Source: Escherichia coli
GTDB taxonomy: Bacteria > Pseudomonadota > Gammaproteobacteria > Enterobacterales > Enterobacteriaceae
Assembly: GCF_051903065.1 (NCBI RefSeq)
Contig: NZ_CP178438.1
Strand: one strand, 5' to 3'
Length of the DNA: 64,000 nt
The notes under the pieces are model-generated. The model was not told where the DNA came from, ran no database searches, and worked only from the letters and a program-made list of their open reading frames with translations. Position 1 is the first letter of the stretch. Every line of letters starts with the position of its first letter. The translations under genes and the position numbers were made by a program. Of this stretch, positions 46,734 to 55,579 are shown piece by piece.

Positions 46734-47306
46734 TCAGAACTGGCCTGCTACGGGATACCAGGGGTTACCGGCGAGGCAACGGGCTTCCGGATCGCACACA
46801 CCACGACGATCGCGGGCGAAATCACTGAACGCCCAGATCAAATCTTTGAGGATGTCTTCGCAGTCCGGTGAACGACTGTCCAGCACCACATCCCGGGTTA
46901 TCTGTTTCTGGTACGGTGCCGCTTCCCCCGGTGACGCGAAGCCCAGTACGTTGCTCCAGGCATCCAGAATCAGCCGGTCCAGTTCGGGGCCGTCGAAATA
47001 CTCCTGTCTGACGCACAGCACCACGTGGTATTCCGGCTTTTCCGGATGACGGGTCAGGAGCCAGCAAAGGTCGCGTCCGGGTTTCGCATTCATCAGCGCA
47101 CTGACGGTTTCGATAAAATCCATACCAAACCAGGTCTGTCTGCTGTTGAAGGCGTTGTCATGTTCCCACGGCAGACGAAGCAGGATCCGCCGTATCCGTG
47201 AGCCGGACTGCTCACGCAGCGCACGCTCAAGGACGCCGATGACTTTGTTCTGATAAGATGGCCAGAAGGGTGCCAGGCTATAGTCGAAATAAGGGATAGC
47301 ATTCAT
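46734..47306 (-). CDS. YagK/YfjJ-family (inovirus Gp2-like) protein, paralog 1
   Basis: Start MNAIPYFDYSLAPFW at 47306; shares motifs with the other two paralogs (EYHVVLCV / FHAHAVFW / HYHVILLL). Confidence 0.55.
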   Translation of the reverse strand: MNAIPYFDYSLAPFWPSYQNKVIGVLERALREQSGSRIRRILLRLPWEHDNAFNSRQTWFGMDFIETVSALMNAKPGRDLCWLLTRHPEKPEYHVVLCVRQEYFDGPELDRLILDAWSNVLGFASPGEAAPYQKQITRDVVLDSRSPDCEDILKDLIWAFSDFARDRRGVCDPEARCLAGNPWYPVAGQF

Positions 47307-47553
47307 AAGATATGCTCCATTATGCGCAACCCACAACGCGCCCTGCCCGTGAATGAGCTGACGTGTTATGGCTTGCGGATGAGATTGATGGAATAAGTGA
47401 AGAACTGAAGCAGAACGGGAAGATAAGGGACAGAACACCGGATGCAGGTTCAGGGTGAATGATCTCCGTTGACTTCAGTTCACATCATTAATCATCGAGG
47501 TAAGTTTTTACCGACTAAGTGTTTCCGGGCCAGGAAACTCATGATTCAAACTT

Positions 47554-48120
47554 TCAGAAGTGAGGCTTACGAGGACGCCCTGCTGCAGGACGTTCAGGAA
47601 CTTCATTGCAGCCGTAGGCACACAGCCCGTCTTTTTGCTCTTCTTTCGCCAGATAATGCAGGGCACCGCGAATATTATTGATGCTTTCAGGATCGTTGTG
47701 GCGCACAGGAATGTTGATGTTGTATGTATAATGCGGCTGATATGTACAGCGGTGTGCCGAACCGCTGTTATGCGTAATAGACCGCCAGCATTCCGTAATC
47801 CGCTCCGCAAAGGGATATATTTTTTTAACCCTCTGACGATCGATCCAGAAAACCGCATGCGCATGAAAACCATGATCAACCGTCCATTCAATCACCCAGA
47901 AGAAGCCAACGATATTTTCAAATTGTTCTACCTGCTCCAGCAGCATACGCAACTGCAATTCAAGCCAGCGATGATCAGGTTGTAAGAAATCAGGCGTATC
48001 TTTCCTGTAGAAGAAATCCATGCGTAAGGCCCGCAGGCAGGAATAGCGTGCCATCATTTGATTGATGTGATTGTCAAGTAAAGCGGTAAAAAACCAGTTT
48101 GGTGTATAAGATTTAGGCAT
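47554..48120 (-). CDS. YagK/YfjJ-family protein, paralog 2
   Basis: 188-aa ORF with FHAHAVFWIDRQ His-hydrophobic-His motif. Confidence 0.55.
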   Translation of the reverse strand: MPKSYTPNWFFTALLDNHINQMMARYSCLRALRMDFFYRKDTPDFLQPDHRWLELQLRMLLEQVEQFENIVGFFWVIEWTVDHGFHAHAVFWIDRQRVKKIYPFAERITECWRSITHNSGSAHRCTYQPHYTYNINIPVRHNDPESINNIRGALHYLAKEEQKDGLCAYGCNEVPERPAAGRPRKPHF

Positions 48121-49154
48121 GTTGATGACTCCTGAAAGTTAATGATGTTTTAAGCTCTGTGAGCGAATTAATGCTTTCGCTCATAATCAGATCTAAAACG
48201 GTAATAACTTACAGATGGTATTTATCAGGCATGCTGTAGCAGAATGAATACGACGGGTTATTAACGATACGCAGCATTATGCAGAAAGAAATGGATTATC
48301 TGATGGTATTTGCTAAAGAGATGAGATAAACGAGGAGCGAATAAAATACAGAATCAATAAACATCACGAAATACTGCAAAACACGCGATAAAAACCCACA
48401 ACCAGAAGGTTAAGAAATATATTTCGACCAATCAATCATAAACTACAAACTTGCTCTCAGTGGTTCTAAAAAAACGTGAACAAGGCCAACGCAATAAACT
48501 TATACGCCCTCATCCAATCTGTTCTTAAGGACATGAACGTTAACCGCACACATTACCAGAGTAAAAAATACCACTGGCATGATTTTTACTCTGCATCTTA
48601 AACAATACAACCCGAAACAAACATAATCAGGAATTCACTCTGTTAATTTCATTGTTTATCCTGCACTGTTAAACATGACGAAATCATGGACACCTTATCA
48701 AAGAGTAAACATTCAGTTAATCAGTGATGACAGAAGTATTGATATTTACCGGAATGGTTAAAACATATCAGATAAACAATCATTGTTAAGCAAATACAGC
48801 TCATGATGGATAAAATTAAAATAAATTATTATTTCACTGAAAACAGGAACAGAGAGTGAGTAAAGACAGGAAGTAAATAACAATAGAGATTATATCAAAA
48901 AGGGAGTGAGTATAATAATAGTAATAAACCTAAATTAAAAATATCCATGTTTTATGTAAATACAAATCTGTTTCATAATTATGTACAGAGGTTCGTTATA
49001 ACGAATCTGTAAGTAATTCAGTGTAATTGCTACCATATTAAAGGTGATCGCTCAGGTGTCAGCGCCAGCGATAATAAGACGGTCACCATTTGGATTTTCC
49101 GCTCCACCCAACATGTTGTTTCCTTAAGGTTCTCACACCAGAAATGACATCAAC

Positions 49155-53006: not shown

Positions 53007-53333
53007 GCCTACCTCCTTTTTTCACAGTATAACGGGATGAAAGTGGGGGAGGAAATGAGTCAGAACCTGTACACCAGCATTAGGGGATTCCGCGTCTGGT
53101 ACAAAGCAGACTATGAGAAGAGAGACGCTATAACATTTGAGTCCTACCAATCGATCTGTTCATTTCTATGAATGGCAGTAAATGCAAATAACCAGAACAA
53201 CCAAAGGTTTTTCGACTTATGTGTCACGAACGGAAGTAGATGGCAATCCATTGCATTACTTCAGGACGACTTTTCAGAAAGCGAGCTAAGGGCGTTGGCA
53301 TAAACTCAGGCATCGGATGCTGTTTTACAGGGT

Positions 53334-54065
53334 TCACCTGCCATCCAGTAGACGCCCCAGCCCACGACTGCAACCATAATTACGTTGACCAGAACCGTCA
53401 TGCTGCTTCGTCTCATACTTCACGAGATAACGGGCTCTCTCCATGGCTTTCTGCATCGCTTCCACATCACCACGCTTGACCCAGAGAACAGCGGATCCAC
53501 CAGATTTTTTGTCAGAATCCTTCCGGGTATCAGAACATCCACCAGGCACAGGCGTATCATCGGAAGAAGGGCGAGCATCAGATGATGTCGGTTTACGGAA
53601 AGGCGTCCGCCTGGAAAAATGAACCAGTCCATTACCCTGCCAGGGCTCAAGATGCAGAGCACTGCACCATGCCAGCTTGATCAGTGTCGCCAGCGAAGAA
53701 GGAACGGTGAAATCCCCTGGCGAGCACCAGGTATCTTTGTTGAGCAGTAATATCACGTGATAATGTTTCCTGCCTTTTTCCTTGCCAAACTCCCGACACC
53801 AGAAATAACGCAGAGTGGTTGCACGCACACGCTTGTTGGCACGTCGTTTTTTCCGCTGGTAAGCCTGAATTTTTGCTTTCAGGGATGCAAAAAAACGAGA
53901 AATCACCGCTGAATCTAAATCGGTATCCATGATGGTGGCAGGCATATACTCAGGGAAACGTAAATCCACCCGGATTAACGAGACGGCACGGTGTTGCGCC
54001 AGGGCACCGTTGAGAATACTTTCAAAACGGGATAACCAGTAAGCATTGTGTATTGGTTGATTCAT
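53334..54065 (-). CDS. YagK/YfjJ-family protein, paralog 3
   Basis: 243-aa ORF MNQPIHNAYWLSRFESILNG... with HYHVILLLNKD motif. Confidence 0.55.
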   Translation of the reverse strand: MNQPIHNAYWLSRFESILNGALAQHRAVSLIRVDLRFPEYMPATIMDTDLDSAVISRFFASLKAKIQAYQRKKRRANKRVRATTLRYFWCREFGKEKGRKHYHVILLLNKDTWCSPGDFTVPSSLATLIKLAWCSALHLEPWQGNGLVHFSRRTPFRKPTSSDARPSSDDTPVPGGCSDTRKDSDKKSGGSAVLWVKRGDVEAMQKAMERARYLVKYETKQHDGSGQRNYGCSRGLGRLLDGR

Positions 54066-55579
54066 GATGAGAGATCTCCGTTGATTTGGATTGACTTCAC
54101 ATCATTAATCACCGCGGTAAAACTTTACGGCATCCGGCATTGAGCAATGCTACAACTTTCGGATTAAGAGTGATTGAAACGGAACAAACCATCCCGGAAC
54201 AAAAAGATAATTCTACACGCAGGGTAAAAACACTCAAGAACAGCGAATGGATTTAAAAACGACATGGACAACGAGAAAAGTCAGAAGGGAAAAGGATCCA
54301 CAGAACATTCAAACAAAACACCAGAAACGCAACCAGAACGCTTCCTGGTAATGCAAATCAACAACAACCCCAAAACCTACAGCTTAATCACACAACTCAA
54401 TCACGGATGCGAATGACACGTTTAAAACCTGTTTACAGATAACGCCGTTACACGATCATCCCCATCAGAATCGATTTTCCCTTCCTGAAAGCGTTACGTT
54501 TCACTACGCACCATAAAAACGATTAACCATCGATAACGTAAACTTCATCTGAATCAAAACACCAAAACCGTTCATCACACTTTCGCAATGCAAGAAGAGT
54601 CACATCATGACGAAAACAATGACCTTACACGGAAAAGAAAACGTCAGGAATCGTTAATGCCTCAATCTGATTGTTATCAAAACATCCAGAAAGTCGTTTA
54701 ACAGAATCGTCGTAAGCACATCGAAAAGAACGTCAGATTACTTCAGGAAAGTTCGGGTTGATTTAGCGTAAAGATACTTTTCTCATGCTAACGTCGAAAC
54801 TCGAAATATCAGGAAAGGTTAAACGTAACATCAGTAAAATCGAATAGCAGATTGATTGCTGAAGCAGAAAGGTTTTACAGCAGCATTAAACTGATTTTAG
54901 CTAACGTAAAGATTTACTAAACTGGATGTATTTCAGACAAAGCAATGTGTACAGCAATGCTTAACGAAAACACTTGTAGAAGTGTTTATGAAAATACGTG
55001 TATAACACTTACTGAAATGCTTAGTAAAAATACGTGTATATAGTATCATACCGACATTCTCAACTCTTCCAAACATCCATGCAGACTGAATGTTGATTAC
55101 CCGTTTTCACATCAGGCATGGTTCTTTACTGACCAAAAAACAAACTGGTTTACTCTTGAATTATTTTCTCTACCTCAGAAAACATGGTCTCAGGAATCTG
55201 TTATGGCTTCGTAGTTTCTGTTGTTCTTTTCATAAAAGTTATAAGTTATTGTCATAATCATACGATAATCACTTTATGTTAGTTTTTACTGTTACACGCT
55301 ACTGACTTTTTCAGTCATTGCCAGAAAGGGGCTCTTTTTACTTCCATTTCACCACTCAACAAATGCAAAACTCGTCCAGTAAAGCGGACCACCACTTGCT
55401 CACAAGCAACGAATCGTCTCCAGGAACAGCCCTCAAACATTGCAGAAACAAAAACAACAAAACCCTCATTATCACTGATGTTCGGAAAATTTCCATGACC
55501 CAAAAAACGAAATTTAAATGAGACGCATTATCATGCGTGTGATCAAAAAGACGTTATGGTAGCTTTCAGTTAAATGGTG

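Follow-up and report, generated by a model that had tools for sequence, protein, structure and literature searches.

Proteins of the YagK/YfjJ family (PF11726) are encoded by islands such as CP4-57 and CP4-6, and our literature search found no described function for them. Here we analyse a 64,000-nucleotide stretch of Escherichia coli DNA (from contig NZ_CP178438.1; called the window throughout) which carries three open reading frames (ORFs) related to this family, named ORF1, ORF2 and ORF3, and two copies of a noncoding element, A, upstream of ORF1 and the regulator gene alpA, and B, in the leader of ORF3. ORF3 is a full member of the family, ORF2 carries every residue that is invariant in it, and ORF1 is a homologue at the level of sequence profiles. 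As in CP4-57 of strain K-12 and in the Shigella SRL island, these genes lie beside alpA/vis-like and yfjI-like genes, with several copies per island. On the other hand, neither the element nor its GGTAA-N4-TTACC repeat is present upstream of K-12 yfjJ or yagK, and ORF1 lacks the first histidine of the histidine-hydrophobic-histidine (HUH) motif and the catalytic tyrosine.

The locus can also be compared with the HUH replicons, among them adeno-associated virus (AAV) Rep with its Rep-binding element at the p5 promoter, geminivirus Rep with its iterons, and pMV158 RepB, in all of which the same site serves initiation and autoregulation. As in these replicons, the gene for a small HUH domain of origin-binding or nickase type stands here beside a conserved site, which contains a repeat and overlaps the leader of this same gene. 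In contrast to them, the E. coli module, which is known here from sequence and structural models, has no helicase domain or partner, carries a second copy of the element ahead of a dead paralog, and is predicted to form no stable hairpin.

Two further precedents come from Pseudomonas. In islands integrated at transfer-messenger RNA genes, a Gp2-like gene directly followed by alpA occupies the end opposite the integrase, accompanied by RadC and helix-turn-helix genes, and this end module was proposed to provide a core island function (PMC12595487). No cis element was described there, whereas the E. coli locus adds ORF1 between the Gp2-like gene and alpA, and a duplicated leader. In P. aeruginosa, AlpA is a Q-like antiterminator with a binding element, GGGACG-N5-GGTA, located within a promoter (PMC7969949). 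The E. coli module likewise contains an AlpA-family protein, a terminator between ORF3 and A, and a site common to two transcription units, but the AlpA motif is absent from both A and B, and neither of them contains a promoter.

Anatomy and conservation of elements A and B

Repeat searches, pairwise alignment and a model built with nhmmer agree that A and B span ~82–85 bp each, are ~80% identical and differ by a single 5-nt indel. The sequence-only reading of this DNA had described a near-identical element upstream of two of the three ORFs; the sequences that it quoted lie exactly at 47461–47500 and 54071–54115, although the repeat is longer than it had proposed. The 16-mer TGATTAATGATGTGAA and the 12-mer TCAACGGAGATC occur twice each in the window, both times at A and B, and the nhmmer model, for which 28 distinct copies were used, detects no further one within the 64 kb. 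Since the similarity is confined to ~85 bp, the concern that the element might be part of a longer generic repeat can be set aside.

Read on the minus strand, each element contains a 14-bp inverted repeat, GGTAA-N4-TTACC, followed by a 4-nt spacer and by a nearly invariant core of 34–39 nt, which consists of TGATTAATGATGTGAA, a short segment containing the 5-nt indel, and AA(A/G)TCAACGGAGATC (Table 1). The repeat arms GTAA/TTAC are retained while the four central nucleotides vary (AAAC, AACC, AGTT, GTTA), and two B variants carry GGTAA-AGTT-TTACC in place of the repeat seen in the window. The core of B contains the Shine-Dalgarno (SD) sequence of ORF3. At the corresponding start-codon position, copies of A show CTG, TTA or a deletion, and therefore no gene starts there; in the window 155 nt separate the end of A from the ORF1 ATG, and the ORF2 stop codon is found ~30 nt upstream of A. 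A longer ORF1 starting just after A was considered and rejected, its homologues being ~190 amino acids (aa) long and covering only 77% of the extended query.

Upstream of ORF2 there is a third inverted repeat, kept in all five ORF2-type loci examined and followed 10 nt downstream by TGATTATGA; under the explanation favoured below, it would be the surviving trace of a weaker version of the element. Allowing at most one mismatch, the pattern GGTAANNNNTTACC has 6 matches in the window where 1.25 are expected, a number reached by none of 100 shuffled sequences, and three of the six are located upstream of the three paralogs.

Of 5,426 complete E. coli genomes, 1,872 have copies of B that are at least 95% identical, at 2,500 places in all, and the region around A was found in 1,876 E. 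coli genomes (2,499 places). A itself is present in each of the 13 fetched loci that carry ORF1. A always stands ahead of ORF1-alpA, with ORF3 or ORF2 upstream, and B always ahead of ORF3. Within E. coli the nucleotide diversity (pi) of the core is 0.026 for B and 0.035 for A, against 0.17–0.19 in flanking noncoding DNA (0.19 upstream of B) and 0.085 and 0.16 at four-fold degenerate sites of ORF3 and ORF1, respectively. The core is thus 3–5 times less diverse than its flanks and than synonymous sites, and its conservation is stronger than neutral. The 4-nt spacer, by comparison, reaches a pi of 0.17–0.44 (0.44 in A); every one of its positions varies, yet its length is constant across the 28 distinct sequences.

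Outside sequence of the E. coli type, the exact motif is essentially absent. A scan of 100,044 species genomes returned four stretches only, two of which, on a single contig of an Enterobacteriaceae metagenome-assembled genome (MAG), are a typical A and B; the other two come from MAGs of Gastranaerophilales and Nitrospirae, fit the element model only weakly and seem to be chance matches. The distant loci that carry a Gp2-like gene and alpA have no common flanking repeat, and the sequence of the element was not found in our literature search. In one such locus, from Brenneria corticis (L015), a perfect 16-nt inverted repeat (3899–3914 and 4749–4764) joins the leader of the Gp2-like gene (CATCATGACAATCTCC) and the SD and start region of alpA (GGAGATTGTCATGATG); it could be a single site present in two inverted copies, or it could let distant parts of the RNA pair and so block the translation of alpA.

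We found no sigma-70-like promoter (-35 and -10 hexamers spaced by 16–18 nt) within or abutting A or B; this holds for both strands, and for the canonical locus L005 as well as the window. The nearest sigma-70-like site, at 54237–54210, is not conserved among variants. A candidate noticed by eye on the plus strand of B (TTGATT-17-ATTAAT) was discarded, as it misses the -11 A and its spacing is 12 nt in A, and by-eye checks for IHF, DnaA-box and CsrA motifs gave no fit. Of the shared promoter or operator that had been suggested from the sequence, the operator is partly right, the element being far better conserved than the genes, but the element holds no promoter consensus.

Three old paralogs and one module

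The window is an E. coli leuX island: it runs from pyrB to tRNA-Leu (leuX) and on into a composite genomic island, with a P4-type integrase at the start and a block of GTPase, antirestriction, RadC and CbtA/YeeU genes at the end. Over positions 46400–54400 the window matches E. coli GDSC2BY4G (NZ_CP136025.1) with 100% identity and O157:H7 strains with ~99%. In the RefSeq annotation of NZ_CP136025.1, ORF1 is a 'hypothetical protein', ORF2 a 'YagK/YfjJ domain-containing protein' and ORF3 an 'inovirus Gp2 family protein'. The three minus-strand ORFs are present where the sequence-only reading had placed them, and the YagK/YfjJ lineage that it had assigned to them is borne out for all three. The HUH motifs that it had described in each were found in ORF3 (H-Y-H) and ORF2 (H-A-H), but ORF1 has E-Y-H. 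Pairwise BLASTP among the three proteins gives nothing significant, and profiles were therefore needed to show their relatedness; they are relatives within the family, but very old ones.

ORF3 matches PF11726 with an E-value of 6e-37 (127.6 bits, above the gathering score) and PF23343 with 1.4e-9. It carries an HUH motif, H101-Y-H103, and a Y-x-x-K-type motif, Y213-L-V-K-Y217; H101, H103, Y213, K216 and K220 are among the 13 positions that are invariant in a 21-sequence alignment of the family. It also matches phage replication-initiator families of the PHROG database (E 7e-8), and the closest structures to its model are the nickase domains of parvoviral NS1, AAV Rep and SIRV Rep. ORF3 therefore has, as judged from its model, an HUH origin-binding or nickase fold, and is a predicted nickase-type protein. 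Residues 154–189 form a 36-residue low-complexity insert rich in Ser, Asp and Pro (pLDDT below 50), which belongs to the E. coli ORF3 subfamily and is absent from more distant family members. Truncated or frameshifted ORF3 variants of 214 aa are found in many E. coli genomes; proteins that seemed to be 'diverged' forms of ORF3 (61–70% identity, 214 aa) turned out to be these variants, with the same element B.

ORF1 has no match in Pfam, NCBIfam or PHROG, and it belongs to a small family with hardly any members outside E. coli. Its ancestry is nevertheless apparent when profiles are compared: the ORF1 family aligns with the YagK/YfjJ family over 151 columns (hhalign probability 98.4%, E 8.5e-15), and BLASTP of ORF1 against K-12 YfjJ gives an E-value of 2.4e-5. 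The position of the invariant Tyr213 is taken by Asp162, itself invariant in the ORF1 family. The AlphaFold2 model of ORF1 shows a beta-alpha-beta-beta-alpha core, and its HUH matches are interspersed with generic ferredoxin-like folds. Because the catalytic residues have been lost, ORF1 is, from its sequence, a catalytically dead derivative of the YagK/YfjJ lineage and not an HUH enzyme.

ORF2 retains all 13 invariant columns of the family alignment. Its matches to PF23343 (E 8.9e-5) and PF11726 (E 6.7e-4, 20.1 bits, the curated gathering score being 25.8 bits) are each under the gathering score, but a family hidden Markov model (HMM) made without ORF2 detects it with an E-value of 1.3e-5, and it matches phrog_7120 (E 9e-10).

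The gene after alpA (45674–46186, minus strand), named 'UCP030791 family putative phage-derived protein' in RefSeq, can be aligned colinearly with the YagK/YfjJ family. It shows LRWLREQ, IRCLLLF and LLQQTWRG at the motif positions, and the HUH and Tyr motifs are absent. The comparison by hhalign gives an E-value of 0.004 (probability 8%) and the family HMM one of 2.7e-3, controls being near 0.1, and a homologue in another strain carries the RefSeq name 'YagK/YfjJ domain-containing'. This gene looks like a fourth, even more degenerate paralog.

In the fetched E. coli loci the common order is a GTPase block, a divergent hypothetical gene, ~1.5 kb of AT-rich spacer, B and ORF3, followed after ~120 bp by A and, a further ~155–200 bp on, by ORF1 and alpA. 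ORF3 is followed in the canonical locus L005 by a terminator-like hairpin (L005 9053–9076; nine pairs and a T-tract, with the tail GATCGTTTTC), and in the canonical loci this is an intrinsic terminator that separates ORF3 from A. ORF3, A, ORF1 and alpA are thus one conserved module, present in ~35% of E. coli genomes. alpA is the conserved partner of the Gp2-like genes: in Brenneria, Providencia and other distant loci (39–43% identity) the Gp2-like gene is followed directly by alpA and ORF1 is absent, and the pair is also that of the Pseudomonas islands discussed above.

In the window this module is interrupted between the 3' flank of ORF3 and A by a 5.7-kb segment. Comparison by BLASTN with L005 places the boundaries precisely, as L005 7213–9132 corresponds to window 55168–53231 and L005 9135–10553 to window 47529–46119. 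Among the three paralogs, only ORF2 came with the inserted segment, and the suggestion that the paralogs mark the cores of separate P4-like elements fused into the island is not supported. A second frequent variant, represented by L009, carries a YfjI-family gene and ORF2 at the same insertion place, and junction-specific searches found ORF2 adjoining A in ~701 places and the ORF3 flank adjoining A in ~973.

What the shared element may do

The best explanation of these observations, in our view, is that A and B are a shared cis-acting element, a recognition site for a protein, or an operator, which came along when the gene was duplicated, although we put it forward tentatively and at slightly less than even odds. 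With much the same reserve, we would assign the element to the 5' leader of YagK/YfjJ-type genes in a 'Gp2-like then AlpA' control module of CP4/leuX-type islands. Since A and B resemble each other across the SD and as far as the start-codon position, and since ORF1 is a degenerate paralog of ORF3, the simplest history is that gene and leader were duplicated together. An ancestral Gp2-like gene would have been copied with its leader, one daughter becoming ORF3, still of the HUH nickase type, and the other ORF1, with its catalytic residues lost. A single DNA-binding protein encoded by the module, acting in trans, would then bind both copies and so place ORF3 and ORF1-alpA, which are consecutive transcription units, under common control. 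Candidates for such a protein would be the AlpA-family regulator or the HUH-domain proteins, in which case dead ORF1 could be a binding-only version. Leaders that are ~80% identical ahead of proteins that are now only ~15% identical, low diversity in the core and a free spacer of fixed length fit a composite protein-binding site, and it is on this pattern that we rate a shared recognition or operator element highest. Further, the predicted HUH origin-binding or nickase fold of ORF3 leads one to expect a cognate DNA site.

Several observations weigh against this interpretation. Without a sigma-70-like promoter in or near A and B, any link to transcription initiation is indirect, and A, at 155–200 nt from the start of ORF1, is far for a simple operator. 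All the sequence diversity lies within E. coli, so that its low level in the core could partly reflect recent spread or gene conversion, and the fetched loci came from searches that included the element, which brings in some ascertainment bias. The inverted repeat is not enriched in distant modules with a Gp2-like gene and alpA, with 3 matches in 115 kb, about the number expected by chance. In Providencia heimbachae (L016, 4619–4632), whose Gp2-like protein is only 39% identical to ORF3, TGTAAAGTTTTACC lies between the Gp2-like gene and alpA and agrees with the repeat of B at 13 of 14 positions; this may be chance in AT-rich DNA, or else a conserved operator.

The main rival, compatible with the autoregulation of known Rep systems but unsupported by hairpin predictions, makes the element a nick or origin site specific to ORF3, similar to a double-strand origin or an origin of transfer (oriT); we consider this unlikely. 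On this view ORF3, bound to the inverted repeat, would cut one strand within the core and so start rolling-circle replication or transfer of the excised island, with A as a second initiation or termination site and ORF1 as a competitor or accessory factor. The HUH origins of rolling-circle plasmids, relaxases and the IS200/IS605 elements have a short inverted repeat near a conserved stretch, beside a rep-like gene, and the element, with its repeat at a fixed distance from an invariant stretch, follows this usual layout; B is, moreover, the sole strongly conserved noncoding block adjoining ORF3. The motifs retained by ORF3 (HUH and Y-x-x-K-Y), its PHROG matches and the nearest structures to its model point in the same direction, and related TAI islands have been reported with an oriT and no known relaxase of their own (bioRxiv 10.64898/2026.01.13.699239). 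However, single-stranded DNA of A or B, on either strand, folds no better than shuffled sequences (z -0.5 to -1.1), the stem of the repeat has only 4–5 bp, and A is tied to ORF1-alpA and not to ORF3. Two direct copies 0.9 kb apart, both used on the coding strand, would excise ORF3 alone. In a plasmid collection only fragments of the island were matched, and no plasmid oriT region beyond these.

A role as RNA seems to us more doubtful still. Here a structure in the 5' untranslated region would hide the ribosome-binding site and start codon of ORF3 until opened by a protein or a small RNA, with A as a second target or decoy. The element contains no promoter and so is probably transcribed from further upstream, and in the predicted RNA of B UGAUUAAUGAUGUGAA pairs with CUCUCAUCAUGAAUCA across the AUG, with the SD paired inside the loop (minimum free energy -23.1 kcal/mol, z -2.4; 4 of 200 shuffles fold equally well). 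The presence of a ProQ/FinO-family protein near some module variants, and the perfect 16-nt complementarity of the Gp2 leader in Brenneria to the SD and start region of alpA, would also fit. Yet for A no significant RNA structure is predicted (z +0.15 to -0.66), and its SD-like GGAG is not followed by a start codon, while TCAACGGAG is equally conserved in A and B, and three natural variants (L026, L028 and L010) break stem pairs with no compensation. No covarying structure was seen for the element, and the covariance models of Rfam 15 gave no match at 46000–55600 even at E-values up to 1, except for a chance hit to PhotoRC-I inside ORF3.

We are equally sceptical of a relic without function, in which A and B would be the copied 5' end of a Gp2-like gene and would still resemble each other because the duplication is recent or because the two nearby copies undergo gene conversion. 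The sequence-only reading had offered a relic of the duplication unit as an alternative, and the element does look inherited with its gene: the resemblance includes the SD and reaches the start codon (ATG in B, where A has CTG or TTA), as in a copied gene start, ORF1 is a degenerate paralog of ORF3, and all the diversity examined lies within one species. But a relic does not account for a core far better conserved than the genes and less diverse than adjacent noncoding and synonymous sites, with an internal 4-nt spacer free to vary; the genes have diverged so far that equally old neutral sequence would be unrecognisable. The differences between A-type and B-type copies, including the 5-nt indel, are fixed in all sampled lineages, and so no homogenisation is ongoing, and A persists where both its flanks were replaced. 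We discarded control by Dam methylation, since the core varies at few positions and those of GATC are among them.

The least probable of the schemes considered here, and little more than a long shot, is a self-contained 'nick-and-regulate' switch for a very common class of islands, found in about one in three E. coli genomes. The live HUH nickase ORF3 and its dead paralogs, ORF1 and perhaps the UCP030791 gene, would recognise the same repeat-plus-core ahead of ORF3 and of ORF1-alpA, and binding by the dead paralogs would gate both AlpA expression and nicking by ORF3. Excision would in this way be coupled with replication or transfer in islands for which neither a replicon nor a relaxase has been recognised.

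What is new at this locus is of annotation grade, namely a single module, a dead HUH paralog, and a constrained repeat-plus-core element in about a third of E. coli genomes; on present evidence, it is not a new kind of system. CP4/leuX-type islands hold a large share of the virulence, defence and toxin-antitoxin cargo found in E. coli, and the module offers a set of proteins and a DNA site for joint tests. Should the element be the recognition site of an HUH protein, it would be a candidate origin or transfer site for these islands; if it is a plain operator, the result is routine regulatory annotation.

Features of the locus and its surroundings

Table 1. Positions in the window of the module, its elements and the inserted segment.
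Feature	Position	Strand	Remarks
alpA, AlpA-family winged-helix regulator gene	46429..46665	-	Directly downstream of ORF1; PF05930 E 2e-10
ORF1, degenerate YagK/YfjJ paralog, 190 aa	46734..47306	-	E92-Y-H94 replaces HUH; Asp162 at Tyr213 position
Element A	47444..47525	-	Upstream of ORF1-alpA
CTG in A	47451-47453	-	At the position of the ATG in B
A core, TGATTAATGATGTGAACTGAAGTCAACGGAGATC	47461-47494	-	
A variable 4-nt spacer	47495-47498	-	
A inverted repeat, GGTAA-AAAC-TTACC	47499-47512	-	
Inserted segment, 5.7 kb	47530..53230	.	Extra to the canonical module; separates the 3' flank of ORF3 from element A
ORF2, divergent YagK/YfjJ member, 188 aa	47554..48120	-	Motifs H-A-H and Y-L-A-K-E
Third inverted repeat, TGTAA-GTTA-TTACC	48200..48213	-	80 nt upstream of ORF2 start
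H-NS/StpA-like gene	49931-50371		Within inserted segment
Mrr-like (Mrr_cat-type) restriction endonuclease	52128-53006		Within inserted segment
Terminator remnant (right arm and T-tract)	53275..53296	-	Left arm deleted in the window; from sequence comparison with canonical loci
ORF3, intact YagK/YfjJ (inovirus Gp2-like) HUH-domain protein, 243 aa	53334..54065	-	
Element B	54056..54140	-	Leader of ORF3
ORF3 ATG	54063-54065	-	10 nt past GGAG; B abuts start codon
B conserved core, TGATTAATGATGTGAAGTCAATCCAAATCAACGGAGATC	54073-54111	-	
SD GGAG in B core	54076-54079	-	Ribosome-binding site of ORF3
B variable 4-nt spacer	54112-54115	-	
B inverted repeat, CGTAA-AGTT-TTACC	54116-54129	-	

Besides ORF2, the Mrr-like endonuclease and the H-NS/StpA-like gene, the inserted segment contains IS256 and other transposase remnants and an AT-rich spacer. 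The endonuclease, the H-NS-like gene and the transposase remnants are typical defence and silencing cargo, here placed inside a control module. Two long noncoding stretches are AT-rich (30–41% GC), one of ~1.5 kb upstream of ORF3 (54141–55579) and one of ~0.9 kb upstream of ORF2 (48214–49100), and neither tandem repeats nor Rfam matches were found in them. The real promoters, targets of H-NS silencing or an origin could be located there.

In three E. coli variants of the locus (L006, L007 and L008) a gene for a ProQ/FinO-family RNA-binding protein lies on the opposite strand just past the UCP030791-like gene, ~1.7 kb downstream of A, which hints at RNA-level control in the module. Farther away in the window, a match to the small RNA isrC (41332–41454, plus strand) has no adjacent flu gene, and a group II intron (ltrA and an Rfam intron domain; 44218–44304, plus strand) sits amid IS3 remnants just left of an ECs1377-family gene. 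We regard both as signs of further decayed pieces of islands.

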